A DNA stretch of 64,000 bases from Naegleria gruberi. Taxonomy: Eukaryota. Each line of letters begins with the position of its first letter. Position 1 is the first letter of the stretch. Made by a program: the position numbers and the translations under genes. Below the pieces are notes generated by a model. The model ran no database searches. It saw nothing but the letters and a program-made list of their open reading frames with translations, and was not told the origin of the DNA. Below are positions 1,900 to 51,146 of the stretch, one piece after another. Location of the stretch: NCBI GenBank assembly GCA_000004985.1, contig GG738871.1. One strand, 5' to 3'.

Positions 1900-4800
1900 N
1901 NNNNNNNNNNNNNNNNNNNNNNNNNNNNNNNNNNNNNNNNNNNNNNNNNNNNNNNNNNNNNNNNNNNNNNNNNNNNNNNNNNNNNNNNNNNNNNNNNNNN
2001 NNNNNNNNNNNNNNNNNNNNNNNNNNNNNNNNNNNNNNNNNNNNNNNNNNNNNNNNNNNNNNNNNNNNNNNNNNNNNNNNNNNNNNNNNNNNNNNNNNNN
2101 NNNNNNNNNNNNNNNNNNNNNNNNNNNNNNNNNNNNNNNNNNNNNNNNNNNNNNNNNNNNNNNNNNNNNNNNNNNNNNNNNNNNNNNNNNNNNNNNNNNN
2201 NNNNNNNNNNNNNNNNNNNNNNNNNNNNNNNNNNNNNNNNNNNNNNNNNNNNNNNNNNNNNNNNNNNNNNNNNNNNNNNNNNNNNNNNNNNNNNNNNNNN
2301 NNNNNNNNNNNNNNNNNNNNNNNNNNNNNNNNNNNNNNNNNNNNNNNNNNNNNNNNNNNNNNNNNNNNNNNNNNNNNNNNNNNNNNNNNNNNNNNNNNNN
2401 NNNNNNNNNNNNNNNNNNNNNNNNNNNNNNNNNNNNNNNNNNNNNNNNNNNNNNNNNNNNNNNNNNNNNNNNNNNNNNNNNNNNNNNNNNNNNNNNNNNN
2501 NNNNNNNNNNNNNNNNNNNNNNNNNNNNNNNNNNNNNNNNNNNNNNNNNNNNNNNNNNNNNNNNNNNNNNNNNNNNNNNNNNNNNNNNNNNNNNNNNNNN
2601 NNNNNNNNNNNNNNNNNNNNNNNNNNNNNNNNNNNNNNNNNNNNNNNNNNNNNNNNNNNNNNNNNNNNNNNNNNNNNNNNNNNNNNNNNNNNNNNNNNNN
2701 NNNNNNNNNNNNNNNNNNNNNNNNNNNNNNNNNNNNNNNNNNNNNNNNNNNNNNNNNNNNNNNNNNNNNNNNNNNNNNNNNNNNNNNNNNNNNNNNNNNN
2801 NNNNNNNNNNNNNNNNNNNNNNNNNNNNNNNNNNNNNNNNNNNNNNNNNNNNNNNNNNNNNNNNNNNNNNNNNNNNNNNNNNNNNNNNNNNNNNNNNNNN
2901 NNNNNNNNNNNNNNNNNNNNNNNNNNNNNNNNNNNNNNNNNNNNNNNNNNNNNNNNNNNNNNNNNNNNNNNNNNNNNNNNNNNNNNNNNNNNNNNNNNNN
3001 NNNNNNNNNNNNNNNNNNNNNNNNNNNNNNNNNNNNNNNNNNNNNNNNNNNNNNNNNNNNNNNNNNNNNNNNNNNNNNNNNNNNNNNNNNNNNNNNNNNN
3101 NNNNNNNNNNNNNNNNNNNNNNNNNNNNNNNNNNNNNNNNNNNNNNNNNNNNNNNNNNNNNNNNNNNNNNNNNNNNNNNNNNNNNNNNNNNNNNNNNNNN
3201 NNNNNNNNNNNNNNNNNNNNNNNNNNNNNNNNNNNNNNNNNNNNNNNNNNNNNNNNNNNNNNNNNNNNNNNNNNNNNNNNNNNNNNNNNNNNNNNNNNNN
3301 NNNNNNNNNNNNNNNNNNNNNNNNNNNNNNNNNNNNNNNNNNNNNNNNNNNNNNNNNNNNNNNNNNNNNNNNNNNNNNNNNNNNNNNNNNNNNNNNNNNN
3401 NNNNNNNNNNNNNNNNNNNNNNNNNNNNNNNNNNNNNNNNNNNNNNNNNNNNNNNNNNNNNNNNNNNNNNNNNNNNNNNNNNNNNNNNNNNNNNNNNNNN
3501 NNNNNNNNNNNNNNNNNNNNNNNNNNNNNNNNNNNNNNNNNNNNNNNNNNNNNNNNNNNNNNNNNNNNNNNNNNNNNNNNNNNNNNNNNNNNNNNNNNNN
3601 NNNNNNNNNNNNNNNNNNNNNNNNNNNNNNNNNNNNNNNNNNNNNNNNNNNNNNNNNNNNNNNNNNNNNNNNNNNNNNNNNNNNNNNNNNNNNNNNNNNN
3701 NNNNNNNNNNNNNNNNNNNNNNNNNNNNNNNNNNNNNNNNNNNNNNNNNNNNNNNNNNNNNNNNNNNNNNNNNNNNNNNNNNNNNNNNNNNNNNNNNNNN
3801 NNNNNNNNNNNNNNNNNNNNNNNNNNNNNNNNNNNNNNNNNNNNNNNNNNNNNNNNNNNNNNNNNNNNNNNNNNNNNNNNNNNNNNNNNNNNNNNNNNNN
3901 NNNNNNNNNNNNNNNNNNNNNNNNNNNNNNNNNNNNNNNNNNNNNNNNNNNNNNNNNNNNNNNNNNNNNNNNNNNNNNNNNNNNNNNNNNNNNNNNNNNN
4001 NNNNNNNNNNNNNNNNNNNNNNNNNNNNNNNNNNNNNNNNNNNNNNNNNNNNNNNNNNNNNNNNNNNNNNNNNNNNNNNNNNNNNNNNNNNNNNNNNNNN
4101 NNNNNNNNNNNNNNNNNNNNNNNNNNNNNNNNNNNNNNNNNNNNNNNNNNNNNNNNNNNNNNNNNNNNNNNNNNNNNNNNNNNNNNNNNNNNNNNNNNNN
4201 NNNNNNNNNNNNNNNNNNNNNNNNNNNNNNNNNNNNNNNNNNNNNNNNNNNNNNNNNNNNNNNNNNNNNNNNNNNNNNNNNNNNNNNNNNNNNNNNNNNN
4301 NNNNNNNNNNNNNNNNNNNNNNNNNNNNNNNNNNNNNNNNNNNNNNNNNNNNNNNNNNNNNNNNNNNNNNNNNNNNNNNNNNNNNNNNNNNNNNNNNNNN
4401 NNNNNNNNNNNNNNNNNNNNNNNNNNNNNNNNNNNNNNNNNNNNNNNNNNNNNNNNNNNNNNNNNNNNNNNNNNNNNNNNNNNNNNNNNNNNNNNNNNNN
4501 NNNNNNNNNNNNNNNNNNNNNNNNNNNNNNNNNNNNNNNNNNNNNNNNNNNNNNNNNNNNNNNNNNNNNNNNNNNNNNNNNNNNNNNNNNNNNNNNNNNN
4601 NNNNNNNNNNNNNNNNNNNNNNNNNNNNNNNNNNNNNNNNNNNNNNNNNNNNNNNNNNNNNNNNNNNNNNNNNNNNNNNNNNNNNNNNNNNNNNNNNNNN
4701 NNNNNNNNNNNNNNNNNNNNNNNNNNNNNNNNNNNNNNNNNNNNNNNNNNNNNNNNNNNNNNNNNNNNNNNNNNNNNNNNNNNNNNNNNNNNNNNNNNNN

Positions 4801-7086
4801 NNNNNNNNNNNNNNNNNNNNNNNNNNNNNNNNNNNNNNNNNNNNNNNNNNNNNNNNNNNNNNNNNNNNNNNNNNNNNNNNNNNNNNNNNNNNNNNNNNNN
4901 NNNNNNNNNNNNNNNNNNNNNNNNNNNNNNNNNNNNNNNNNNNNNNNNNNNNNNNNNNNNNNNNNNNNNNNNNNNNNNNNNNNNNNNNNNNNNNNNNNNN
5001 NNNNNNNNNNNNNNNNNNNNNNNNNNNNNNNNNNNNNNNNNNNNNNNNNNNNNNNNNNNNNNNNNNNNNNNNNNNNNNNNNNNNNNNNNNNNNNNNNNNN
5101 NNNNNNNNNNNNNNNNNNNNNNNNNNNNNNNNNNNNNNNNNNNNNNNNNNNNNNNNNNNNNNNNNNNNNNNNNNNNNNNNNNNNNNNNNNNNNNNNNNNN
5201 NNNNNNNNNNNNNNNNNNNNNNNNNNNNNNNNNNNNNNNNNNNNNNNNNNNNNNNNNNNNNNNNNNNNNNNNNNNNNNNNNNNNNNNNNNNNNNNNNNNN
5301 NNNNNNNNNNNNNNNNNNNNNNNNNNNNNNNNNNNNNNNNNNNNNNNNNNNNNNNNNNNNNNNNNNNNNNNNNNNNNNNNNNNNNNNNNNNNNNNNNNNN
5401 NNNNNNNNNNNNNNNNNNNNNNNNNNNNNNNNNNNNNNNNNNNNNNNNNNNNNNNNNNNNNNNNNNNNNNNNNNNNNNNNNNNNNNNNNNNNNNNNNNNN
5501 NNNNNNNNNNNNNNNNNNNNNNNNNNNNNNNNNNNNNNNNNNNNNNNNNNNNNNNNNNNNNNNNNNNNNNNNNNNNNNNNNNNNNNNNNNNNNNNNNNNN
5601 NNNNNNNNNNNNNNNNNNNNNNNNNNNNNNNNNNNNNNNNNNNNNNNNNNNNNNNNNNNNNNNNNNNNNNNNNNNNNNNNNNNNNNNNNNNNNNNNNNNN
5701 NNNNNNNNNNNNNNNNNNNNNNNNNNNNNNNNNNNNNNNNNNNNNNNNNNNNNNNNNNNNNNNNNNNNNNNNNNNNNNNNNNNNNNNNNNNNNNNNNNNN
5801 NNNNNNNNNNNNNNNNNNNNNNNNNNNNNNNNNNNNNNNNNNNNNNNNNNNNNNNNNNNNNNNNNNNNNNNNNNNNNNNNNNNNNNNNNNNNNNNNNNNN
5901 NNNNNNNNNNNNNNNNNNNNNNNNNNNNNNNNNNNNNNNNNNNNNNNNNNNNNNNNNNNNNNNNNNNNNNNNNNNNNNNNNNNNNNNNNNNNNNNNNNNN
6001 NNNNNNNNNNNNNNNNNNNNNNNNNNNNNNNNNNNNNNNNNNNNNNNNNNNNNNNNNNNNNNNNNNNNNNNNNNNNNNNNNNNNNNNNNNNNNNNNNNNN
6101 NNNNNNNNNNNNNNNNNNNNNNNNNNNNNNNNNNNNNNNNNNNNNNNNNNNNNNNNNNNNNNNNNNNNNNNNNNNNNNNNNNNNNNNNNNNNNNNNNNNN
6201 NNNNNNNNNNNNNNNNNNNNNNNNNNNNNNNNNNNNNNNNNNNNNNNNNNNNNNNNNNNNNNNNNNNNNNNNNNNNNNNNNNNNNNNNNNNNNNNNNNNN
6301 NNNNNNNNNNNNNNNNNNNNNNNNNNNNNNNNNNNNNNNNNNNNNNNNNNNNNNNNNNNNNNNNNNNNNNNNNNNNNNNNNNNNNNNNNNNNNNNNNNNN
6401 NNNNNNNNNNNNNNNNNNNNNNNNNNNNNNNNNNNNNNNNNNNNNNNNNNNNNNNNNNNNNNNNNNNNNNNNNNNNNNNNNNNNNNNNNNNNNNNNNNNN
6501 NNNNNNNNNNNNNNNNNNNNNNNNNNNNNNNNNNNNNNNNNNNNNNNNNNNNNNNNNNNNNNNNNNNNNNNNNNNNNNNNNNNNNNNNNNNNNNNNNNNN
6601 NNNNNNNNNNNNNNNNNNNNNNNNNNNNNNNNNNNNNNNNNNNNNNNNNNNNNNNNNNNNNNNNNNNNNNNNNNNNNNNNNNNNNNNNNNNNNNNNNNNN
6701 NNNNNNNNNNNNNNNNNNNNNNNNNNNNNNNNNNNNNNNNNNNNNNNNNNNNNNNNNNNNNNNNNNNNNNNNNNNNNNNNNNNNNNNNNNNNNNNNNNNN
6801 NNNNNNNNNNNNNNNNNNNNNNNNNNNNNNNNNNNNNNNNNNNNNNNNNNNNNNNNNNNNNNNNNNNNNNNNNNNNNNNNNNNNNNNNNNNNNNNNNNNN
6901 NNNNNNNNNNNNNNNNNNNNNNNNNNNNNNNNNNNNNNNNNNNNNNNNNNNNNNNNNNNNNNNNNNNNNNNNNNNNNNNNNNNNNNNNNNNNNNNNNNNN
7001 NNNNNNNNNNNNNNNNNNNNNNNNNNNNNNNNNNNNNNNNNNNNNNNNNNNNNNNNNNNNNNNNNNNNNNNNNNNNNNNNNNNNNN
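1900..7086. other. Large assembly gap (5187 N) lying inside the NHL-repeat gene
   Basis: Continuous n run. The ORF-track entries 1889..7540(-) and 1892..7102(+) are translations of N and are not real. Confidence 0.99.
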
Positions 7087-9753
7087 CAGTTGGGGAAGCT
7101 AGCAAAGCAAGGTTTGCAACATTATCATCTCCACTAAATCCAAATTTACCTGTTCCAGAAATTGTCTTAATACCTCCCTTAATATTATCAATCATTCTAA
7201 TCCTATTAGTTTCAGATTCCGAAATGACCATCTTGTTGTCTGTAGTTAACAGAATTTTTGTGGGATTTACATTAGCATAAAAGACATTCGATCCATCTGC
7301 AATACCTCCTACAAGTGGTTCCGTTCGACCATTTGATAAAACTAAATTTCCTGCTGTATAAACAAAATATGGCACTTCTGAGCATAAACCAATCGGAGAT
7401 AGTATTTTTTCATGGAAGGATGAAATTACACCTCCATTAATTATACGAATTTTGTTATTAGCAGTATCAGCAATATAAATAGATTGGTCAATGACATATA
7501 CCATACTTGGTAGGAAGAGTTTTGCCTGTGTTGCAACCATACCATCACCATTATATCCTTATTCTCATCAATATTCATTAATGTATTAGAAACTTACCTG
7601 ATTCACCTGTTCCAGCAATGATTTCAACCTTGAAATCATAATAAACACACAATATTCTGTGATTATAAGTATCTAATATAAATTAATGTATCCTAACTAG
7701 TAGGAAAGAGAAACTTACCTGCTACAAAGAGATTATGATTTGAAACAAACAATCCAAATGGTGAATTCAATTGAGTTTCTTTAGGATTATTGGGAACAAG
7801 GCTAGATCCAGTAATTCCATTTCCTAACACTGTACTAATAGTTCCATTGAAAAAAGATCTGACTCTATGATTGAAAGAATCTGAAATGTATAAAATTTCA
7901 GAATCATAGAATACATATTTTGGTAAGTTGAGATGAGTTTCTAATGGATTCAATCCGTCTCCATTAAATCCATTAGTACCACTTCCAACAATTGTGGTTA
8001 TTGTTCCATTAGGAAATATCATTCTAATTCTGTGGTTTCCACTGTCAGCAATGTAAATATTACCAGAATTCTTATCAAAATGAACTGAATGAGGTTTGTT
8101 TAATTGAGCATTAATTGCCAAACCTCCATCACCAGAAAATCCCTGAAATCCAATACCAGCAATAACCTCTACCATTTCGTTTGAGGTATATTTGAGAATT
8201 CTATGATTATCAGTATCCGCAATATAAATCGTAGAAAATGAATCGAGACAGAATATTCCTGTTGGATTTTTCAAAATTATTGAGGACGGAGGACCTTTCT
8301 TTCTTAATCTATCACCAGTAATGGAACCAGCATATAAACAACCGTTTCCTTTAGATACATCTATTTTTTGAATCATTTTAGTTGATGAAACGTATAAATC
8401 AGAATTTCTGAGTTGTAATGCATTGGGAATGAATTTTGAACGGATAAAACTCTCATTAGTCTCTTCAGAAGAATTCCAACATGAAACATTTGAAAATTTG
8501 TCTATTAATGGAATGGTAGACACAGTTCCAGTTGTCAAATCCACTTTCTTTAAATTAAATCCAAAATTAGAATCAGCAATTAATAGTTCATTACTTGATT
8601 GATTGAACGCAATAGCAGCTATTGAATCAAACACTCTATTTTGCACATTAGTACCATCAATAATAGCTCCATTAATATTTAAAATTGGATAAACTTGTTT
8701 AAGGGACAAATCAGCTTTCATTATAGCTTGTGCATGAAAAATATGATTTGGTGAGAAAAAAGTTGGTGATACAATAGATGAATCGAACAACAAAATGGTC
8801 GAAATATTCCCAGTAGTTTGATTAATCACTTTCCAATATCCTAAATTTGAAAGATAAATTGAATCGTCAATAGGAGAAACTGCAAATCCATACACAAAAT
8901 TAAGTTTAGCATCCAAAGCAGGTCCATCATTGGTATTTCCATCAAATTTTCTCCCTTGAATGACAGTCATCCACCATGTTTGTAAATTAATCTTGAATAT
9001 TGAGAATAAATCACATCCATACAAGTATCCCTTGTGATATCTTATATTCGAAATATAAGTTGAAAACATTGTTTCGTTTGAAAAGCCATCTTTCTTGGTT
9101 AGTGTAAATCCATCTCGCAAACTCATAAACTTAATAATTCCGTTTAAATCAACTCTATATAGGTTTGATTCATCACAAATATACAAGTTTCCAATAGGAT
9201 CCCTAGAAATTGAACCAATTTTGGTAAAAATGGTATTCGAAAGTGCTGAACCTTCCTGAATGGTAGTGGAAGTTCCTAACTGCTTGGAAAGAAGAATTAA
9301 ATTTCCATTTTGAAATTTGTAGATCTGCTTGTTGGTAGCAATATAAATAGTGTCGTATGAAGTTTCGTCCACATGAAAACTAGTAATGGTGAGATAAACG
9401 GTAGTTGCACTATTGATATCACCAGTAGAAACCGAATTCTCGGTCATACAACCAGAATAACAACCAACCAATAATTTTCGATCACCAGAAGTTTGATTAA
9501 ATTTAAAAATACGAAAAGAAGATTCCTGAAAATAAATAATTTCTGGCTGATTTTCGGATTGGTATGCATTGGCAAAAGCTGTTGAAAATTTGCCTACACC
9601 ACTGATAGGTTCCCATCTATACGCAACCAGTTTCGAATAACCAAGCTGAACAAACAAGAATAAACTCAGCAAAATGAGCAGACGCATTTTTCTTTTGATT
9701 CCAATACACATATGATTGATGACTTTAGTGCACCATTTAAAGTTTCTGATCAT
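7087..9753 (-). CDS. Secreted NHL-repeat protein, 5' part of a gene whose 3' part is lost in the N gap. Exons (minus strand): 9753 (or Met at 9687)..7719, 7672..7598, 7557..<=7087. Introns are 46 nt (7718..7673) and 40 nt (7597..7558)
   Basis: 686-aa ORF with a signal-peptide-like MRLLILLSLFLFVQLGYS after an internal Met. Repeated NHL consensus, e.g. YIADTDNHRILKY, VIAGIGFQGFSGDGGLA, YIADSGNHRIRMI. Exon joins are chosen so the NHL repeat reads through: ...NLFVAG|DTYNHRIL... and ...IIAGTGESG|YNGDGMVATQAKL.... Donors are CAG|GTAAGT and acceptors ATTAG| and ATAAG|. Confidence 0.75.
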
Positions 9754-10563
9754 TACATTTGAAAATTAATCTAACAATAAATTTACATTGATTGTAATGT
9801 TGTGGAGGCTTGAAAAATGAAAAGGTTTGTAGATGGAGAAAATTCACATCATCAACACATGAACTACACAGTTGTCGGTGGTAAATATAATGGTAGAGAA
9901 TAATATAATAAACATATTATGAATTGTTGTTTTATTATATTGTTTGAAACTTACGGTGCATAGCGTGAAATATCGGAACTTGGTAAATTGACAACATGAC
10001 GAAAATCTGATAATAAATATGATGTTTATTATCTATTTAAATAGTAGTACTAAAAGACATGATTCAAGTTGGTGAAGTACATGCTTAGTTATGATCCATG
10101 TTATTTTTGTTTTTCAAAATTCACATGTACCTATCCCTATCATAACTTGACCAAAATTGATTAGAGAAAGTTCTCCTACCTACTATTGACCATTCCGAAC
10201 AATACTACATTGACAGTTTTCCAACTTGTCCAGTAGATCCGGCAGTAATGATGAATTTAGTGAAAACATTTCATCAAAATTACATTACTAAAAATTAATT
10301 TCCACAAATACTATTATTATATTGATGGAAAACAATAATGACGATGGTTGGTGAATGATCCGATGATGGAACACCAAATTGTGAATTTCCATCATGAAAA
10401 ATAAATTCCAATTTCATGATGATAATTCACCAATAAAAATTACTATTATTACTATTATATAGATCATGTTGAGATGATGATGTGAAAGTTTGGTGGTTTC
10501 ATGATGTAAACCACTCCGAAATCATCATATCCTCCTGAGTAGAAGAATGTTTTTTTTATGAAA

Positions 10564-21622: not shown

Positions 21623-21696
21623 GCCGTCATAGCTCAGTTGGATAGAGCACAGGACTTCTAATCCTGGGGTCGTGGGTTCGAGCCCCATTGTCGGTA
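21623..21696 (+). tRNA. tRNA-Arg(UCU): tRNA-Arg (anticodon UCU)
   Basis: Cloverleaf read by hand: acceptor GCCGTCA/TGTCGGT (one U-U mismatch), D arm GCTC-AGTTGGATA-GAGC, anticodon stem CAGGA/TCCTG with loop CTTCTAA, T arm GTGGG-TTCGAGC-CCCAT. Followed by a T-run (atttttaatttt) as a Pol III terminator. Confidence 0.8.
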
Positions 21697-23241: not shown

Positions 23242-24180
<939 letters not shown>

Positions 24181-25113: not shown

Positions 25114-25163
25114 NNNNNNNNNNNNNNNNNNNNNNNNNNNNNNNNNNNNNNNNNNNNNNNNNN
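25114..25163. other. Assembly gap (50 N) that truncates a 5S rRNA gene
   Basis: Run of 50 n. Confidence 0.99.
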
Positions 25164-25253
25164 TCTCCAACCTCAGTACTGATGTGGCTCGACGATGCTT
25201 AACTTCTCAAATCGGACGGGATGAGGTGCATTCATCGTGATATGGCCGTAGCC
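25164..25253 (-). rRNA. 5S rRNA gene, copy 1. The 5' 90 nt are present; the 3' roughly 28 nt are lost in the adjacent gap
   Basis: Identical over 90 nt to the complete copy at 28525..28642. Confidence 0.85.
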
Positions 25254-25541
25254 ATTAAATACCTTAAAACTCTAATGATAAACAGCCAATCTGTCTTTAA
25301 CCAGAATAGACAATTAACAATGTTGGACAAACTCATAATGGATTGTAAATGATACCTTACCACAAACAAAGTATTGAATACAGCAATTGTTTCGAAACTT
25401 TGAATTTTGCTGTATTACTCCTTAGTAAATTGATGCAGCTTTCTTTCCTGTTTCCTCACTCCTCTGCAAGATGATGAGAATTTTATCAATTTCTTTCCAA
25501 TTCATAAATTGTCTGAGATATTATTTCAATTGTTAATTTTG

Positions 25542-25602
25542 GACGGGAAGCCTGCCAGGAATATGGCGACTATCCCGCTACAGTCTTTGACTGTATGAAC
25601 AG
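25542..25602. promoter_or_regulatory. Conserved element B, copy 1 (gacgggaagcctgccaggaatatggcgacTatcccgct plus the hairpin acagtctttgactgt), about 289 bp upstream of the 5' end of 5S copy 1
   Basis: 38-nt core is near-identical to 28926..28963. Same distance and orientation relative to the 5S gene. Intervening spacer is unrelated. Confidence 0.5.
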
Positions 25603-26350
25603 TGAAGGCAACTAATCTATTGATTGTTGGTTCAGTAAGTTATTGTTTAGAAAAACTTGCAACGTGACCATATTTTTATCACCTTTGAATTTTATCTATT
25701 TAGAAAGGGAAACTTGTGGTTGATCAATAAACCTTCAAATTTCGAATTTGAGTCTTCAAATATATTGTATCGTATTGAACTTCGATGATTTACCAACAAC
25801 CTTACCTGGTATTATGTAATTCCAATACAATGCAATGAATTTTGTTATCTTGCTTGATGATCATTGAATTGTGAAACCTGATTAATACACAATCTACAGA
25901 ATTGTGAATTGGTATTTCCGTATCATTTCTCTAGTTAATTTTATTTTCTATTAATTGAAAAAAAGTTTAAAAGGTACCAATCTGCAAGTTCACAAATCCC
26001 CCATTCACAAACCATGGCTGGTAAGGAATGCGGCAATCATAGCTTCATCTTGGTTAACCTCAAAGGTCAGATTGACTCAAAAAAGTCGAGTTTATGTATT
26101 CCTACAGAAAAGATCCTGTAGAAGTACAGTCAATGGTTTTATCAAGAAAGCTTTCTGAGGTTTGTGATATTGGCTTTGAATGTGTGACAAGTGCGATTTA
26201 GGAAAGTTTGAACCCAACCACACACAAAACGTGATTTAGTCCCTTTTTGACCAGATCGGAATTCACAACGTGATTAAAATAAACTTAAAATTAGCAACAC
26301 AACTATTTGCCTTCAGAATAAAAGAAAAAGAAACCAACAACAATTGAAAC

Positions 26351-28315
26351 ATGCTGCCTGCCAAAATATCAAAAAAGTCATCAAGGAAACCAAGAATTGC
26401 CATTCCACCCTGTGCCATGCTGATGGATCCAGACGGATGGGCAAGATTTGCAACCGATCTGACTGTAACTGCAACCATCGCACGTGGCAACAAGAAGGGA
26501 AGAGCGAACATGCTTGCTCAACTACAGATGAAACAAGCAATGGACAAATTGAAAATGAAACAGTTATTGGAAAGTACATTGGGATGTGCAGATATTGTGC
26601 TGGAAATCATGTCAAACTATAGTGATGAGGAATTCCTTGCTGAATTGATGAAGTATTTGATTAATTTTCCTGATTTGGTAAATAGAGAAGCTTGCTTGCA
26701 AATTCTCATGCACAGAAGAGTTTGGTGTTGTAACAATAATAGTCAATTAGAATTTTTACATGGTTGGTTGGAAAATGAGCCAATTATTCATGACACTGAA
26801 TGTGTTGTGAGATTTTCAAAATATTCACTTAAATTCATGTCCACAATTGAAAAGTTTAGTACAGTTACCTTAAATGGTATCTCAATTACAAAGAGACAAT
26901 TGGTTGACTTGATGAATGCAAGTACCAGTAAGATCCAACATTTAAAATTCAACAACTTTCGGCTCCTCAACCCAGAATCTCGATTCTCAAAAAGAATTTT
27001 TAGAATTACACCTTATTTGAAAAAGTTGACATTTGACTTTGAATTGCCATTCATTAGAACCTTGACAAATGAAGGGAAAGCTAAGGAAATTGATAACCCA
27101 ATATTTACACTTGTCAATAATCTTGATTTGATTTCTTCCAATATTGAAGAATTATCATTCTCAAATATAATTTACGACAATAGTGATTTCTCACTTATTT
27201 CACATTTAGGTAACAAGTTGACTCGATTATTATTTACAACACCACCAAATAATTATGACATTTCCACCATTGCTCCCAATCTTGAATATTATGAGAGTCA
27301 CAAGTTTCCAGACAGATCCATCACAATTCCAACTCTCTGTGTTTCACATCCAAGTCAAGAAAACCTCTTAAATCATTCAAGTGAAAAGGTCAGGAAATTG
27401 ATCCTTCGTAACACTGTTAGTTCATGTAAAGAATTGAGATCCTTTTTGAATGATGTATTGGGGAAATGTTATCCTAATTGTGAAGAATTGATTATTCCAG
27501 AAACATTCTTGCAATCATTGTCCAAGGAAGATTTGAAGGGACCAGAAATTGTGTGTTCATTGAAGAGAATCATTGTTAAGCATTCTAGCTCCACGCAACC
27601 ATCCAAATATGGTGCACTCAAGCTTGCTTTATCCTTTTTCTTTCCTTCAAATACAGTATTCCTATTCGAAACCATTCAAAAAGAGGATAATTTTGGAACC
27701 CTTCTTTCCAGTAACAGATCTATCAAAGTTGACTGCTATGAAGATGTGCTCTTCAAAAGAATTGAAAGCACCGAAAGACATTTCAAAGTATTGGACAACT
27801 CTCTCATTACCAAACAAATCAGAAAGATTAAGAAGAAATTCATTAAATGCATCATTTCTAATAATTTTTCAAAATTCCAACGCATTAATGAATCATTGGA
27901 CATTTTGGAAGGATTGAAACGTAACAAACAACTCATGCTCCATACCATCCATCAAGCTATAGAAAATTATCATGACATATTTGACAATGATTCATTATTC
28001 ATGTCAATTAGTGAAAAGTTTGACAAGTGCATGTCAATTCTTGAAGATGAATACATTAGTGAACTTGACTTTGCCCAATGCTACAATAAATTGGAACTTC
28101 TCTTCCACCAAATGATTAAGGTAATTGAGGAGAATGGCTATCCCACAAAAGTCCTCTTCAATGAACAATGGTTCAATGAGCAAATTGTTGAGATTTATGG
28201 TTTTCAATCGGATGAAGTTCAGGTCTATGAAGATTCACAAGAAGAAATGGAGCAGGCAAGTTATGATTTAATGCAAATGGATGAAGTAAATATTGACATG
28301 GAAGATGTTGTGTAG
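26351..28315 (+). CDS. Hypothetical protein (654 aa) with a basic N-terminus and F-box/LRR-like (FBXL-type) irregular leucine-rich repeats
   Basis: ATG at 26351. Single uninterrupted ORF. L-x-x-L-x-L/N-x-x-I-periodicity segments (LKFNNFRLLNPESRFSKRIFRITPYLKKLTFDFELPFIRTL...). No stronger domain call possible. Confidence 0.55.
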   Translation: MLPAKISKKSSRKPRIAIPPCAMLMDPDGWARFATDLTVTATIARGNKKGRANMLAQLQMKQAMDKLKMKQLLESTLGCADIVLEIMSNYSDEEFLAELMKYLINFPDLVNREACLQILMHRRVWCCNNNSQLEFLHGWLENEPIIHDTECVVRFSKYSLKFMSTIEKFSTVTLNGISITKRQLVDLMNASTSKIQHLKFNNFRLLNPESRFSKRIFRITPYLKKLTFDFELPFIRTLTNEGKAKEIDNPIFTLVNNLDLISSNIEELSFSNIIYDNSDFSLISHLGNKLTRLLFTTPPNNYDISTIAPNLEYYESHKFPDRSITIPTLCVSHPSQENLLNHSSEKVRKLILRNTVSSCKELRSFLNDVLGKCYPNCEELIIPETFLQSLSKEDLKGPEIVCSLKRIIVKHSSSTQPSKYGALKLALSFFFPSNTVFLFETIQKEDNFGTLLSSNRSIKVDCYEDVLFKRIESTERHFKVLDNSLITKQIRKIKKKFIKCIISNNFSKFQRINESLDILEGLKRNKQLMLHTIHQAIENYHDIFDNDSLFMSISEKFDKCMSILEDEYISELDFAQCYNKLELLFHQMIKVIEENGYPTKVLFNEQWFNEQIVEIYGFQSDEVQVYEDSQEEMEQASYDLMQMDEVNIDMEDVV

Positions 28316-28524
28316 ATGTGTCTATTCACTTTGCAATGTTGCTTTAGCATTGCGAATATTCAACATTTAATACAAATATATTTTCTTAAAGTATTGTGAA
28401 AATAAAAAAAGTTTATTGAATGGTAAGTTGTTTGTATACATGAATCAATTTGAATCTTGTAATGAAAATGTCTCTAAATAGAAAATAAAAGAATATTGTT
28501 AACATTTCTTAGTAAAAGGAAAAA

Positions 28525-28642
28525 GACTACAGCACCACAGGTTCCCAAGTTGTCTCCAACCTCAGTACTGATGTGGCTCGACGATGCTTAACTTCTCAAA
28601 TCGGACGGGATGAGGTGCATTCATCGTGATATGGCCGTAGCC
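28525..28642 (-). rRNA. 5S rRNA gene, copy 2, complete (about 118 nt)
   Basis: Minus-strand reading: GGCTACGGCCATATCACGATGAATGCACCTCATCCCGTCCGATTTGAGAAGTTAAGCATCGTCGAGCCACATCAGTACTGAGGTTGGAGACAACTTGGGAACCTGTGGTGCTGTAGTC. Helix-I pairing 5' GGCUACGGC with 3' GCUGUAGUC. Conserved CCGUCCGAU / AGUACU / GGGAAC / GGUGCUGUAG blocks of eukaryotic 5S. Followed by TTTTTCCTTTT as a Pol III terminator. Confidence 0.9.
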
Positions 28643-28925
28643 ATTCACTACCTTAATACATTGACTATAAAGAATATTGCAAATCTAAGCAATGTTACAC
28701 AGATTATAGAATTGACTTAGTTTTCGTATTAGATACTTTCAATAATCGTATTAATGTGGGGTGAAAGAAATAACATTTGAATGGAAGAATACTCAACAAT
28801 TTTTATCTAATTTCGTTAATTATTGCATGAAAGAAATACTATGAAGGTCAACTGTTCCCACATTAACAAATGACATTGAAGGTCGACTGTTTGAATTTAA
28901 AAATGCTTATTCAATTTACAATTAA

Positions 28926-28979
28926 GACGGGAAGCCTGCCAGGAATATGGCGACAATCCCGCTGTTCATACAGTCAAAG
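28926..28979. promoter_or_regulatory. Conserved element B, copy 2, about 284 bp upstream of the 5' end of 5S copy 2. The hairpin segment is inverted relative to copy 1
   Basis: gacgggaagcctgccaggaatatggcgacAatcccgct, then gttcatacagtcaaag, which is the reverse complement of the acagtctttgactgtatgaac seen in copy 1. Confidence 0.5.
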
Positions 28980-29637
28980 AATCTTGTTGGTTCAGGTTTT
29001 GTTTGAAGAAATTGAAAAGGTTGATTAACCTCATATTTATTGAACATTTGTCATGTTAAATTGCTTGATGCAAATTTTGGTTTCTCTTATTCTGATCAAT
29101 TCGAAATTGAAACTTCATCTATTTCAAAACAAATTAGTTTATTTATACTGAATTATTTACAAGTTGTAATTTACATCTTTTTCGATTTGGTAATCTTCTT
29201 ATTTGTGGTGTTTGATTGTTGTTTAGCTCTCTTTTCAATTGAATTTTTCGAAGATCTTTTCACAGAAATTTGTTTACCATTTAAATTTGCATGGTGATAA
29301 TCAATATTATTACGATGTCTAGTTCCACTTATAATATTTGAAGTATCAATAAAAGATAAATCAATTGGTTTAGATCTTGACCAAACTGTTTTTGTTGGAA
29401 TTCTATCTTCGGAAGATGAAGAATTTGATGAAGTATTTTACTAAATGTTTTGTTGTGGAAATATCATCATCCTACAATTATCTATTTATTTCCATGGTGA
29501 TTTCCACTAATTTTGTGATTCCAATTTTTGTAGGATTTTCCACTCATCACAAGAATTTGAATTTTTCTATTAATATTTTGATGAAGGAAATTTAATGAAA
29601 ATCAAACAAAAGAAAATAACAAAACAACAATAAGAAA

Positions 29638-29853
29638 ATGGTCTCAACAAGAAGAAATATGTTTAATTCCTCCAATAATACTTCACAATTTAATTCCGAA
29701 ATTTCTCTGGATAATATTATTGGTGGTACAAGAAGAAGAAATTTAATTGATTACAAAACATTGAATTCTATTGGAAGTGAAACAAGTAAAACTTCCAAAT
29801 CTCAATCACATAATACTTTAGAAATGAGAAACAAACAATTCAAAATGTGGTAA
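29638..29853 (+). CDS. Small basic Ser/Asn-rich ORF (71 aa). It has a diverged inverted paralogous segment at about 29190..29440 on the minus strand
   Basis: ATG ORF. Protein-level similarity between DNIIGGTRRRNLIDYKTLNSIG (+) and SNIISGTRHRNNIDYHHANLNGK (-). Similar C-termini, ...KQFKMW versus ...KSKKM. Confidence 0.3.
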   Translation: MVSTRRNMFNSSNNTSQFNSEISLDNIIGGTRRRNLIDYKTLNSIGSETSKTSKSQSHNTLEMRNKQFKMW

Positions 29854-41226: not shown

Positions 41227-42567
41227 ATGGAAAGAAGAGGCAACAATAAAAAGTTGACAACCAACAACATTAAACCTTCATTCAAAAAAAACATGTCGAA
41301 GTCGCTTGTTGTTGTTGTTTCGTTCACAGCTGTTGTGTTACTCCTTGCATGCAGTGTATCTGTGATTACATGTTTGTATCCATCCCAAGTTGTTGATATC
41401 GAGAATTGGTATCTGACCCTTCCAATTGGTGATGTTAAAGACCCTACCGACATTTATCAACCAACATTAGCAACCTATTCCATTGATCCATACTTTGTTG
41501 TTGGACCAAATAATAATTCTATTCGTTTTCGTTCAGTCATTTTCAATGAAAGTGTTACAACTGTTGGTTCAAAATATCCAAGATCAGAACTTAGAGAAAT
41601 GGACCCAATCAATCCAGCCAAAGTCAAGATTTCATGGAATAACACAGTTGGTGTCCATACCATGATTATTGACCAAGCCATCACTCACTTGCCAATCACA
41701 AGAGACAGAGTCATAGCAGGTCAAATCCACGATGATAATGAATTCATCTTTACCATCACATTATCTGGCACAACTCTTTACATTAATGCTGCCAATAAGG
41801 CAACTGCTAAGGTCATTACCAAAACCTATCAATTAGGTACAATCTTTAGACTCAAAATTGAAGCACTCAATGGTACTACCAATTTCTACTATAATGACAT
41901 GTCCACTCCAATTTATACTCATCCATTGGTATTTAAGAATTCATACTTTAAGGCAGGTTGTTATGCTCAATCAAATTGTACTGTGGAAGGATCATTGTGT
42001 GGAGATTCAAATAATTATGCAGAAGTGTTGATTTACAATTTGACTACTACTCATGATTATTCATCATCACCATCGTACGTAAATAATTCATCATCCTCAT
42101 CTAATGGAACAATAATTAATAATAATAATGGAACAATTAATTCCAATTCAACCAATAATAATGGTACAATAATTAATAATAATAATGGAACCACTCCGAA
42201 TAATAACAACAATGGTACTATCAATAATAACAATGGAACAATCAATTCAAATTCTACAAATAATTCAACCAATAATAACAATGGAACAATAATTAATAAT
42301 GGTACAACTCCCGATAGTAATAACAATAGCACTAATAATAATAATGGTACAATTATTGATAATGGAGGCTCATCCAATAATAATTCAACAAATACTCCAA
42401 AGGCTTCAACTTCTAATCGGGTTGTTGTGAATATGGCTACTAGTTCTTTCATTCCTCATCATTCATTTGCTAATATTCTGCTCCGATTCATCCTAATGCC
42501 AATACTAGTTTCCTACATTGTCTATTCGCTGGCTTTCCATGATAGTAGCATCTTTCCCACCAATTAA
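41227..42567 (+). CDS. PL7-family (alginate-lyase-2-like) polysaccharide lyase domain protein (446 aa). It has an N-terminal signal/anchor, an Asn/Thr-rich repetitive stalk, and a C-terminal hydrophobic segment (possible GPI signal or TM)
   Basis: ATG at 41227. All three PL7 signatures are present in the right order: RSELRE (R-x-E-L-R), IAGQIHDDN (QIH) and YFKAGCYAQS (YFKAGxYxQ). Hydrophobic N-terminus LVVVVSFTAVVLLLACSV. Stalk of N(n)GTI(N/I) repeats. C-terminal FANILLRFILMPILVSYIVYSLAF. Confidence 0.75.
   Translation: MERRGNNKKLTTNNIKPSFKKNMSKSLVVVVSFTAVVLLLACSVSVITCLYPSQVVDIENWYLTLPIGDVKDPTDIYQPTLATYSIDPYFVVGPNNNSIRFRSVIFNESVTTVGSKYPRSELREMDPINPAKVKISWNNTVGVHTMIIDQAITHLPITRDRVIAGQIHDDNEFIFTITLSGTTLYINAANKATAKVITKTYQLGTIFRLKIEALNGTTNFYYNDMSTPIYTHPLVFKNSYFKAGCYAQSNCTVEGSLCGDSNNYAEVLIYNLTTTHDYSSSPSYVNNSSSSSNGTIINNNNGTINSNSTNNNGTIINNNNGTTPNNNNNGTINNNNGTINSNSTNNSTNNNNGTIINNGTTPDSNNNSTNNNNGTIIDNGGSSNNNSTNTPKASTSNRVVVNMATSSFIPHHSFANILLRFILMPILVSYIVYSLAFHDSSIFPTN
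42090..42400 (+). repeat. Coding minisatellite: imperfect tandem 18-30-nt units (aataataataatggaacaat...) encoding the Asn-rich NnGTI(N) stalk of the PL7-like protein
   Basis: Seen directly. The antisense ORF 42057..42452(-) is a by-product of the repeat. Confidence 0.7.
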
Positions 42568-43235
42568 TTAATTTAAAAATCATAATTATTTTTTAAAAAT
42601 AAAATATTAATCAAAAAAGTGTGATATTATCTTACACTCTTAAATAATATTATATTGTAATGTATTGCTCTGAGTAGTAATCAAATAGAAAGAATAGGTG
42701 CTCCGAACCAGCCGATGAAATATCTCCTCTGAGAGCACTTCTACTCCTCCACAAGGACATTTGGCTAGCCAAATCACAAGTACCAAAGACAATTTCCAGC
42801 ACAATTTCACATTTAGTGCATTCAGTCTCGGTAATAGACAATGTTTAGGAAAGAACTTTGCTCTCTTGGAAGCAACAATGATGTTACAAAAGTACGAACT
42901 CAAATTGTTAAATGATGAAAGTAAGGATCCATTGCACCAATAGACCTACTAATTTGAAAATTCAAAGTCAACTATTGCCTCTCAATGAAAAATGATAATT
43001 ATCTTTTCCTTTTTAAAAACCACAATATTTAACGTTTTACTATTAGAATTCTTGACAATATTGTCAAGAATGTTAAAACTATCGGAATTATTCTAGTAAC
43101 CATTGATCAGACCTACTGTTAAGGTAATGTTATAGTAAGGCATTTATGCAAGATTACTAGATGACTAGAATAATTCTTTTAGAACTTTGAATTTAATCTG
43201 GGGTGGATTTGAAAAATTAAATTTTATATTATACA

Positions 43236-44894
43236 TTAAAAATAGGCTGTTTCATTTTCCAAGCCAGTGACTGTCTGAATATCACCACCTTCAGTCTTGT
43301 AGACAAGCATGAAACTCTTGAGAACATTTGGCCAAGTATCTCCAAAATTAGAATTGGTGACATGAATAGAACCAGTGTTGGCCAATTGTCTAGCTCTTTG
43401 AGTCAAATCTTGAGTTCCATAAGTAAAGCAAATAATCTTTTCTGGGGAGTGGACATAGCCAAGGTGCTTCTTTGATGACACATTAACATGTTGACCCTCT
43501 TGACATGTAACAAGATAATAATCACTTTCACTCTTCAAAACCATTGAGAAGGACTTTGGCCAACCAGGTAAACTATCTTCAAAGTTATGGTTATTGGCTC
43601 CAATATTAAAATTATTTCCACCACTTAAATCTTTTGAGTCCTCAGTTACATCCACAGGTCCATAAGCAGCTGCAAGAATGGACAGATTAGATGAATCAAC
43701 TGGAGCAACAGGTTGAGTAGTTGGTTTTGATTGTGGTGGACCATTGACATTCACAACACATTCTTTTTGATACAAGTGATGATTAAGAATAATCTTGATA
43801 CTATCATCGTGCCACATTGCTCCCTTTTCAGTAGTGGATGGACAAAATACTTGAGAATTTCCTGGTTCCTTAACACAAAAGAAGAGATTGAAATTGTCAA
43901 ATCCTCTTGCCATTATACCAGTTGAAGTGTGATCACAACCAAAACAATGACCCAATTCGTGCATTGAAGCACCAATACCAGTAGCACAGTTGGCATAATA
44001 AGTTCCACGACCAGCACTGTCATCTCTCAAATGTGACTTATCGACAGAAGTGTCATTCATAAAGGAAGCTTGGATCTTATCAACAGAATTAGGATATGAG
44101 TACATATTGACATCAGCCCACATTGCCAAATATCCCCCACCCAAGGCGGCTCCCAATTTAGTCTTATTCAATACAGGATCATAATAATGTCCACTAGTTA
44201 TACAATAATAAACAGTTTGTGGAGTGTGTTTTGAGCTATTGACCAATTGATTATGAATATGGCTATATGCAGCATTACCACCATCATTCATCCAATCATT
44301 ACTCAAACTGGCAAATTCCTCTCTCGTATACTTTTCAGAGTAAACAACATCAATGAGTGGCATATTCTTGTGGTGAGGATCAACTTCTAATGGGAATGTT
44401 CTTCTACCGTCCTGAACCTTCTCAGCACAGAATGTTTGCATCATCAACAAGGCTACTTGCATTCTCTTAATAGCCTCACTTGAATCATTCTTTTCGTGTG
44501 GCATATTTCTGAAAGAACCATCATGATCCTTGCAAACAAACCAAATTCCCTTAACCTTTGAACCACTTCCTGAACCAGCTACATTGATCATATTCGGATC
44601 ATAATTAACCTTAAAGTGCAAATCAGAGTCCTTTCCCGATTGACTCGAGAGGTGAATATTATTCTCTCCTTCCTCCAACAAGACGAGAGCCTTGAAAAAA
44701 GTTTCATAGATAGGGAATTGATATTGTGTTCTCTTTCCGGTCATGGCAGAGACACAACTCACAAATAAAACCTCACCGACATCACCCTTTGATGATGGAC
44801 ACTGACCAAATAACCTGATCAAGCTGTAGCCGAGAGAAGAACCACTCTCATGATTATGAACAATGATTTGAGGCATTATTTTTGTTAAGTTCAT
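43236..44894 (-). CDS. Putative metzincin-like zinc metalloprotease (552 aa)
   Basis: ATG at 44894. Zinc-binding motif HELGHCFGCDH (HExxHxxGxxH) at about residue 310. No clear signal peptide. C-terminal about 150 aa of unknown fold. Confidence 0.55.
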   Translation of the reverse strand: MNLTKIMPQIIVHNHESGSSLGYSLIRLFGQCPSSKGDVGEVLFVSCVSAMTGKRTQYQFPIYETFFKALVLLEEGENNIHLSSQSGKDSDLHFKVNYDPNMINVAGSGSGSKVKGIWFVCKDHDGSFRNMPHEKNDSSEAIKRMQVALLMMQTFCAEKVQDGRRTFPLEVDPHHKNMPLIDVVYSEKYTREEFASLSNDWMNDGGNAAYSHIHNQLVNSSKHTPQTVYYCITSGHYYDPVLNKTKLGAALGGGYLAMWADVNMYSYPNSVDKIQASFMNDTSVDKSHLRDDSAGRGTYYANCATGIGASMHELGHCFGCDHTSTGIMARGFDNFNLFFCVKEPGNSQVFCPSTTEKGAMWHDDSIKIILNHHLYQKECVVNVNGPPQSKPTTQPVAPVDSSNLSILAAAYGPVDVTEDSKDLSGGNNFNIGANNHNFEDSLPGWPKSFSMVLKSESDYYLVTCQEGQHVNVSSKKHLGYVHSPEKIICFTYGTQDLTQRARQLANTGSIHVTNSNFGDTWPNVLKSFMLVYKTEGGDIQTVTGLENETAYF

Positions 44895-49834: not shown

Positions 49835-51146
49835 TATTTGTTTGCAAGGAATGGAATATCTTACTGAATTGAAACAATCAACCATGTGAATCATCTAATA
49901 TTTGAATTTCTGTTGTTATTAGAGCGAGGAAACACACTAGGTACTTCCTCACGTATCAAAAATTTTGAAGGAGGGCAATAGCCAATGGCAATTGACCATA
50001 TACAGGACAGCTTTTCAGAGTGCAAGGAAAAGCGTCGACTGCATAACTTTCCAACCTTCTTGATCATTGGAAAGTCCTTCAAGGTAAGTATGAAGATTTA
50101 AGAGAGGCAAAGTGGGAATATATTTGAAGGCATTTTAATCTACAATTTTGAAATAAAAATTATGGTAGTAATTTTTAATTAAAAAGCCATTCGATATCAT
50201 TGGGCAAGTTATTTGCTCATCTTCAGTCTCAATCCAAAAATTATGATTAAGTATTGGATTAACATGATTAAGCAACTCAGAAAGAGTGTAAACAAATAAT
50301 GAATCAAAAAGCTTATTTATTTTCTTTCCATCACATGATCATTAATTTACTAATAATTAACAATCAAAACACAAACATTCATAATGATCGCCATCATCAT
50401 CAAATTAATATTTTACATTAAAGCTAGTAGACCGAGTTGATTCAACCGGTTGGGTATTAAACAAGGAGATTTGATCCTTGTCGTGATGTTTTCTCTCAAC
50501 TGGTTGATCATCCGAAGGTTGACAAATTTCTCCCTTGATGGTTCTTCCTACTCCACTGAAGGGTTTGAAAGGATGTTGTTGTTGAGGTTCTGAAGAATCA
50601 TTAGAAGAAGAGGAAGGAGGAGAGTGATGCTCCGGATCATCGAAAGGATGCCTATTCATATTCTCTCTTCAATAGATGATATATTTGTTTTATTAGAAAT
50701 GATTATTATTGGAGGGAGAAGAGTTTGTAATTTAATAATTTGGGAAAATAGCTTGTTATGTTCAATAGATGAAATTTCAATTTACAAGAATGGTATGTTT
50801 CTTTAATTGTAATTCTCGTCAACATGCTATCTATTCGAAAGTGGTAAATATTAATTGTGCTTAGTACTCAATTTTAAAAGTGGTAACACCTTACCCCGCC
50901 GCGGGTATTAGTTCACTAATTACTTGTGAAATTCGTCAATATCTTTGTGATGGGGACCTTAAAAGAAAGGTTGTTAACTTTTGTATTGTGGTCTGTGGGT
51001 AAATTGACGAGACAGGTATGGACAGGTTGCCAAATTTACAACCAGCATGAAAGGATAATAGAAGAGGTTGAAACACTTAATTTTCATACCAACAGAAAAA
51101 AACAAATCCATTCGAAACATATTTCATCACTCTCTCGGATACTACT

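Follow-up and report, generated by a model that had tools for sequence, protein, structure and literature searches.

A hairpin-forming module, putatively a distal cis element, conserved upstream of two 5S rRNA genes of Naegleria gruberi

The window analysed here, a stretch of 64,000 nucleotides that corresponds to Naegleria gruberi scaffold_27:1-64000, carries two 5S rRNA genes on its minus strand, 3.4 kb apart, each preceded by a compact module of three conserved boxes. The coordinates match the 5S entries of Table S1 of the published survey, where 5S-1 is placed at scaffold_27 25164-25250 and 5S-2 at scaffold_27 28523-28639 (PMC3369914). The features of the two loci are the following.

25168-25253, minus strand: 5S rRNA gene 1 (5S-1), detected with Rfam, 3′ part lost in the N-gap 25114-25163, 5′ end at 25253
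28524-28642, minus strand: 5S rRNA gene 2 (5S-2), detected with Rfam at 105.4 bits, complete, 5′ end at 28642
25254-25541, minus strand: spacer 1, 288 nt, 30% GC, unalignable with spacer 2 save for the 5S-proximal ~30 nt
28643-28925, minus strand: spacer 2, 283 nt, 27% GC
25542-25579, minus strand (5S sense): core copy 1, a 38-nt quasi-palindrome of 61% GC reading AGCGGGAUAGUCGCCAUAUUCCUGGCAGGCUUCCCGUC, at -289..-326 relative to 5S-1
28926-28963, minus strand (5S sense): core copy 2, one A/T difference from copy 1, at -284..-321 relative to 5S-2
25584-25602, in plus orientation: 19-nt block TCTTTGACTGTATGAACAG, copy 1 (inverted-repeat pair I7)
28962-28980, reverse-complemented with respect to copy 1: 19-nt block, copy 2, sharing the final 2 nt of core copy 2
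25624-25635, minus strand: 12-mer, copy 1, TTGTTGGTTCAG on the plus strand and CUGAACCAACAA in the 5S sense
28984-28995, minus strand: 12-mer, copy 2, identical to copy 1
25636-25725, minus strand: distal flank of copy 1, 90 nt on the side away from 5S, including ATAAAAATATGG
28996-29085, minus strand: distal flank of copy 2, the counterpart 90 nt, including ATAAATATGAGG

The core, GACGGGAAGCCTGCCAGGAATATGGCGACWATCCCGCT, occurs exactly twice in the window with up to three mismatches allowed; its copies agree at 37 of 38 positions, and no occurrence is expected by chance (0 in 100 shuffles). The original prediction had placed a near-identical core 289 and 284 nt upstream of the two 5S genes and on their strand, and this is where the cores begin, leaving gaps of 288 and 283 nt to the genes. 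Copy 2 lies one base further left than the end of the predicted stretch implied. A palindromic hairpin of roughly 21 bp had also been described as flipped between the copies. The flip is real, but the flipped element is better described as a 19-nt block, identical at 19/19 positions on opposite strands (0.04 expected), with a 6-bp palindrome (ACAGTC-TTT-GACTGT) present in copy 1 only. To these elements we add a third shared block, the 12-mer, whose distance to the core is 21 nt in one copy and 45 nt in the other, the variable stretch being the one that contains the 19-mer. Taken together, the three boxes are identical at 68/69 positions, and both modules have the same orientation and a near-equal distance to their 5S gene.

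Outside the boxes, similarity is lost. That the spacers share none was claimed from the start and is borne out by alignment, which stays at shuffle level when the proximal 30 nt are set aside (global z = 0.35, local z = -0.09); the 40 nt adjoining the core and the 300 nt beyond the 12-mer also score at shuffle level. The distal flanks of ~90 nt align weakly (z = 2.7, with 0.8% of shuffles as good) and have ATAAAWATATG in common. Read in the 5S sense, the order is therefore a weakly similar stretch of ~90 nt, the 12-mer, 21 or 45 nt holding the 19-mer, the core, and then an abrupt loss of similarity. The boxes equal the 5S RNA in conservation, and the sequence between them is randomised. In a self-comparison of the 64 kb, the 5S genes, the core and the 19-mer were the only non-coding repeated islands, and no copy of the module was found at the three tRNA genes, the U1 gene or the U3 candidate of the window. 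The module is real, unexplained and 5S-linked, and it matches no curated RNA family; as the original prediction held, the conserved island is non-random and its having a function is probable.

The core was also said to be able to fold, and it does so as an imperfect hairpin, with -19.6 (copy 1) and -18.2 (copy 2) kcal/mol on the minus strand and -14.8 kcal/mol on the plus strand; for copy 1 the minus-strand fold has a z of -4.0. Folding of every 40-nt window of the 64 kb, on either strand, puts the cores first (copy 1) and second (copy 2) in hairpin stability, ahead of the tRNA arms. The fold in the 5S sense is more stable by 3-5 kcal/mol because two G.U pairs form in that sense. The sole substitution within the core (A/T) converts an A-U pair of the 5S-sense fold into U.U and, since it breaks a pair, offers no covariation evidence for or against.

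Could the module be an upstream promoter of the 5S genes? 5S genes are the textbook case of RNA polymerase (Pol) III genes that are promoted internally, and in type 1 Pol III promoters, which are internal, upstream elements lie within about -30. Both window 5S genes have a TATA-like box, TTTAT(C/A), at -29..-23 and a TTAAGGTA box near -10, in a promoter-proximal region that is conserved only in part between the copies. A TATA box and an internal control region have been reported for N. gruberi 5S genes (PMC3369914), so that, with the box at -29..-23, the basal promoter is accounted for elsewhere. The cores, at -284..-326, lie beyond the limit of ~30-40 bp for a basal type 1 element and are separate from the TATA-like box. 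The identical position and orientation of the module relative to both genes would suit an obligatory promoter element, as would the lack of a recognisable TFIIIA in N. gruberi (PMC3369914), given which unusual 5S elements might be used. The 5S genes of relatives speak strongly against it.

A scan with a 5S 24-mer retrieved a metagenome contig (L009) whose 5S gene is 99% identical to that of the window. It has no core within 1.3 kb upstream, and a divergent protein-coding gene, for a hydrolase, begins ~165 nt away. At E <= 1e-30, a search with this hydrolase brought up no protein from N. gruberi, so the contig probably derives from another Naegleria species. The second comparison comes from conserved synteny: a NAC gene lies 2.4 kb from 5S-2, and its Willaertia magna orthologue has a divergent 5S gene just upstream. 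The relevant Willaertia contig, JBEGDK010000058.1 (L023), contains three 5S copies, one of them degenerate (41.9 bits).

3570-3688: Willaertia magna 5S gene
7592-7694: Willaertia magna 5S gene
9566-9684: Willaertia magna 5S gene
10001-10498: Willaertia magna NAC gene

None of the three has the module, a common upstream element or a stable hairpin, and in front of one of the intact genes the ATG of the neighbour is just 101 bp away. The core is therefore absent from three intact 5S genes in relatives (L009 and Willaertia a and c), in all of which the upstream neighbour is divergently oriented. Because these genes lack the module and the window genes have a TATA-like box at about -25, the module is outside the basal or obligatory 5S promoter; an obligatory upstream Pol III element is highly improbable, and this part of the original prediction is dropped, its other options, a factor-binding element and an independent small RNA, both being retained. 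The prediction had further named other 5S genes without the core as evidence against itself, and in related species such genes are found.

Further sequences give the same picture. AT-rich eukaryote metagenome contigs (L005-L008, L010-L014, L016 and L017; VFQM.../VFQO...) carry many dispersed single 5S genes, 84% identical to the Naegleria 5S and each sitting among protein-coding genes, with no common upstream element. When the window and 20 loci were searched with a covariance model built from the hairpin, no further copies emerged; the core had none in metagenomes of the Joint Genome Institute (JGI) or in viral contigs and only two 21-mer matches, at chance level, in prokaryote genomes, and a full-text literature search with the module sequence found no match. 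On the sequences compared, the module is lineage-specific, seen at the two 5S genes of the window and absent from the relatives' 5S genes examined. No 5S gene is present at the NAC locus of N. fowleri (L021), at the hydrolase locus of N. fowleri and N. lovaniensis, at the polyubiquitin loci of these two species or at the ORF654 homologue locus from ERR1598038; homology between ORF654 and the Willaertia F-box gene at the same position was not detectable. The 5S gene beside NAC, common to N. gruberi and Willaertia, has been lost in N. fowleri, and with the absences at the hydrolase locus this means that 5S positions turn over quickly in this group. The polyubiquitin gene of the window (23242-24159, minus strand) has four repeats and encodes a protein identical in N. 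fowleri and N. lovaniensis, where its genomic context differs (L001, L002).

In N. gruberi itself, 279 putative 5S genes are dispersed across more than 100 scaffolds (PMC3369914). They often form loose pairs, 1.5-3.4 kb apart in Table S1, as on scaffold_43 (164721/168060), scaffold_81 (50274/52665) and scaffold_12 (420559/422722) (PMC3369914), and the spacing of the scaffold_43 pair, ~3.34 kb, is nearly equal to that of the window pair. The scaffold_43 pair (164721-168176) may lie on either side of P0002, a paralogue of the gene between the window 5S genes.

The position of the window pair within the scaffold bears on another possibility, namely that the shared boxes are a functionless relic of duplication or a patch of gene conversion between neighbouring 5S loci. 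Telomere-type (CCCAAA)n repeats occupy 1-402 and 1124-1385, at the very start of the window, which places the 5S pair ~25 kb from a chromosome or scaffold end; N-runs lie at 1074-1123 and at 1900-7086, the latter being a 5.2-kb assembly gap. Ectopic exchange is common near chromosome ends, the loci are 3.4 kb apart, and the gene between them has a 91% identical paralogue (P0002) on another scaffold; the open reading frame (ORF) at 26351-28315 is 100% identical to an N. gruberi predicted protein. We nevertheless regard a relic or conversion patch as very unlikely. Neutral sequence could not have stayed identical at 68/69 positions beside randomised flanks, a conversion tract starting from the 5S gene would have homogenised the spacer too, and conversion would not be expected to yield several distinct patches, here three, with one in inverted orientation.

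Three genes bear on the interpretations that follow.

25975-26133 (by eye ~25970-26137), minus strand: U3 small nucleolar RNA (snoRNA) candidate, same-strand neighbour upstream of module 1, located between the module and ORF654
29171-29440, minus strand: small ORF with a CHZ histone-chaperone motif (PF09649, 26 bits, E = 6e-6), same-strand neighbour upstream of module 2
21623-21696, plus strand: tRNA-Arg gene, with a same-strand gene ending 55 nt upstream and without a module

The U3 candidate matches Rfam ACEA_U3 with 37.7 bits (E = 5e-6), under the gathering score of 55; by eye, its 5′ end, UUGACUGUACUUCUACAGGAUCUUUUCUGUAGG, resembles the GAC/A′/A boxes of U3, and an internal U6 run argues against its transcription by Pol III. 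The minus-strand CHZ ORF is an open frame without an ATG and may be incomplete, spliced or a pseudogene. It stands head-to-head with a second small ORF at 29638-29853 on the plus strand, each of the two carrying the CHZ (H2A.Z-H2B chaperone) motif NII(S/G)GTRxRNxIDY. Elsewhere in the window, a U1 small nuclear RNA (snRNA) gene at 49924-50091 on the minus strand scores barely above its Rfam gathering threshold (70.4 bits vs 69.5); its 5′ end, AUACUUACCU, is canonical, and its Sm site reads AAUUUUUGA. A perfect 24-bp palindrome, ATTCTTGACAATATTGTCAAGAAT, lies at 43048-43071 between the convergent genes 41227-42567 (plus) and 43236-44894 (minus), and the first of these encodes a full-length alginate lyase 2 domain (PF08787, E = 1.5e-30), which is unusual in an amoeboflagellate and possibly of bacterial origin.

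The strength of the hairpin brings up the possibility that the module is an orphan small structured RNA gene of ~75-100 nt in the 5S sense, extending from near the 12-mer to the end of the 38-nt hairpin and forming with its neighbours the run U3 candidate, X, 5S. The better fold in the 5S sense, the rank of the cores above the tRNA arms with a z of -4.0, and the sharp end of similarity after the hairpin all fit such a gene; so do the weak 5′ similarity over ~90 nt, in which ATAAAWATATG stands ~35-45 nt ahead of the 12-mer in a promoter-like manner, and a GC content of 61% amid spacer of 27-30%, as in other RNA genes. Against these points, a scan with Rfam 15 gave no overlap with the module at the gathering score and, in sensitive mode over both loci at E <= 10, only snR40 at chance level (14.5 bits, E = 4.2), and inspection revealed no canonical Sm site and no C/D, H/ACA or A/B boxes. 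There is no common terminator, a T5 run following the hairpin after 23-27 nt in copy 2 and after ~270 nt in copy 1. The two RNAs would differ in length between 12-mer and core and would be complementary to each other in the 19-nt block, the only substitution breaks a pair and shows no covariation, and the relatives lack the sequence. On balance, we hold an RNA gene to be a tentative and rather doubtful explanation.

Particular RNA classes were considered one by one. A spliced-leader (SL) RNA is ruled out, since the two copies have the donor-like GTATGA of their 19-mer on different strands, and inspection found no RAUUUUGR. An Sm-class snRNA or U7-like RNA is conceivable: the succession of 12-mer, AGAUUNNUUGNC and hairpin has a fitting layout, although its Sm-like motif is non-canonical and differs between the copies, and the Rfam scan gave no U7 match. 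A C/D or H/ACA snoRNA was rejected, with no common box pair on inspection and an internal loop of only 4+4 nt; an ACA directly adjoins the plus-strand hairpin in copy 1, and in copy 2 it comes after a further 7 nt. A C/D snoRNA candidate within spacer 1 (GATGATGA...CTGA, 25470-25517, plus strand) is without a terminal stem and without a counterpart in spacer 2. No tRNA-like companion, of the sort that precedes Pol III small-RNA genes in trypanosomatids, was found, ARAGORN giving only the three known tRNA genes of the window, and the GGTTCAG of the 12-mer deviates from the B box GGTTCGANNCC at conserved positions. A protein-coding exon or micro-ORF was likewise discarded: a 41-aa ORF is present in copy 2 alone, and the corresponding frame of copy 1 is interrupted by a TAA and offers neither an ATG nor an acceptor.

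Linkage of small-RNA genes to 5S is well known, with SL RNA in Euglenozoa and nematodes and U-snRNA in some animals, and Heterolobosea are the sister lineage of Euglenozoa. The module resembles these cases as a short RNA-gene-like island a few hundred bp from each window 5S gene. It differs from SL RNA in having GUAUGA on opposite strands, no Sm site and no Rfam match, and from the linked arrangement in general in that N. gruberi 5S genes are dispersed and not in tandem repeat units. Some weight, well short of even odds, may still be given to a broader proposal, in which the gene for a small structured RNA not described before, or a hairpin element able to propagate itself, would travel with N. 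gruberi 5S genes at many of the 279 loci, as a heterolobosean counterpart of the SL-RNA/5S linkage of Euglenozoa.

The second half of that proposal deserves attention in its own right. On this view, a small non-autonomous element, or what is left of one end of a larger element, would propagate by inserting at a preferred distance upstream of 5S genes, the two copies being recent insertions of two subfamily variants. Sharp borders, near-identical copies and unrelated flanks would be expected of it, and the copies are mosaic, differing by an inversion and a 21-nt insertion. The 5S-NAC linkage common to N. gruberi and Willaertia magna suggests, with 0/3 Willaertia 5S genes carrying the module, that the 5S-2 locus is older than the module, and 5S positions turn over between Naegleria species. 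However, inspection of the boundaries gave no terminal inverted repeats, convincing target-site duplications, CTRR or poly(A) end; a Pfam scan of 19 window ORFs gave no transposase, integrase or reverse-transcriptase domain; 0/3 window tRNA genes have a copy, metagenome and viral collections have none, and a precise 5S-specific target at -285 would demand a novel mechanism. An inserting element thus seems unlikely to us.

Known element types gave no better match. A MITE (miniature inverted-repeat transposable element) or other DNA transposon would require inverted repeats at its ends and a target-site duplication, but GACGGGAAG... and ...GGTTCAG do not mirror each other and the two copies have no flanking direct repeat in common. 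A Helitron 3′ end was rejected on inspection, neither strand having a CTRR at constant spacing. A primer-binding site of a long terminal repeat (LTR) element was rejected on inspection, and so was a replication-origin loop of CRESS type, the loop CATATTCC agreeing with the TAATATTAC-type nonamer at 6/9 positions. A 5S-derived pseudogene, short interspersed element (SINE) or degenerate 5S fragment is not supported, the 7-mer GCCATAT being all that is shared with 5S (local score 7 vs a null of 6.9, z = 0.1, both strands). Mobile elements targeted to Pol III genes are known, such as Ty3 and Ty1 of yeast and TRE5-A and DGLT-A of Dictyostelium. Their fixed orientation, characteristic distance upstream of Pol III genes and unrelated flanks recall the module, but they are kilobases long or leave LTRs, have target-site duplications and are found mainly at tRNA genes, whereas the module measures 70-94 bp, shows no target-site duplication and does not occur at the three tRNA genes of the window.

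The reading we favour, with a probability of about 0.35, is that the module is a selectively kept, lineage-specific distal cis element, putatively an enhancer or a boundary, belonging to the 5S unit in at least a part of the N. gruberi 5S genes. It would consist of the 12-mer, the 19-mer in either orientation and the 38-bp GC-rich hairpin-forming core. The most economical history would be that a unit comprising the module, ~285 nt and the 5S gene was duplicated long ago and that the functional islands alone survived; with a duplication of the whole unit, the similar spacing needs no special mechanism. The support for a cis element is positional: the equal distance and orientation, the box that is indifferent to orientation and the same-strand upstream genes, since both modules lie between such a gene (the U3 candidate in one case and the CHZ ORF in the other) and the 5S gene. 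The divergent upstream neighbours of the three intact 5S genes that have no module also speak for this reading. A 19-mer that is identical yet inverted points to recognition as double-stranded DNA, independent of orientation, and is unfit for a sequence-specific RNA. We infer purifying selection, action at the DNA level and an enhancer or boundary role. The predicted protein-bound site would lie upstream, some two nucleosome lengths away from the Pol III promoter, and might be a distal enhancer of 5S, or a boundary or terminator that shields the 5S promoter from transcription coming out of the same-strand upstream gene.

Two known systems illustrate these options. The distal sequence element (DSE) of vertebrate snRNA, U6 and 7SK genes is a cluster of boxes ~200-260 bp upstream that acts as an enhancer and not as a basal promoter. 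The module is like a DSE in having compact boxes, a spacing that is kept and an intervening sequence that is not, and single DSE boxes also work in either orientation. DSEs, however, are parts of type 3 promoters and of the Pol II promoters of snRNA genes, and 5S is type 1; the octamer and SPH motifs of DSEs are not present in the module, which has instead a 38-bp hairpin-forming core and is seen in N. gruberi only. The other system is that of the promoter-proximal terminators of rDNA, the TTF-I site T0 at about -170 in mouse and the Reb1 site at about -215 in yeast, which halt incoming polymerases and set promoter chromatin. They, too, are protein-binding elements that keep a set distance to a strongly transcribed RNA gene downstream, and the same-strand gene upstream of each module completes the likeness; unlike the module, they serve Pol I genes through Myb-type sites of 10-18 bp with no hairpin, and the tRNA-Arg gene of the window has a same-strand neighbour but no such element.

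Several observations weigh against a distal cis element. There are two copies only. A palindrome with 16-nt arms looks unusual as a transcription-factor site and more like an RNA or single-stranded-DNA hairpin, and the advantage of the fold in the 5S sense, together with similarity extending on the 5′ side only, favours an RNA gene. The tRNA-Arg gene, with a same-strand gene 55 nt upstream and no module, indicates that shielding is not general to Pol III genes. Finally, Willaertia may lack the module altogether, which would weaken the argument drawn from the orientation of neighbouring genes.

It would be out of the ordinary for 5S genes to have a strongly conserved distal module that forms a hairpin and keeps a fixed distance. 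If the module is limited to the window pair, it would be a local curiosity. If it marks many 5S genes of N. gruberi, it would offer a handle on how these genes are controlled, how their identity is maintained and how they spread, whether as a control element, a linked RNA or a vehicle of dispersal.

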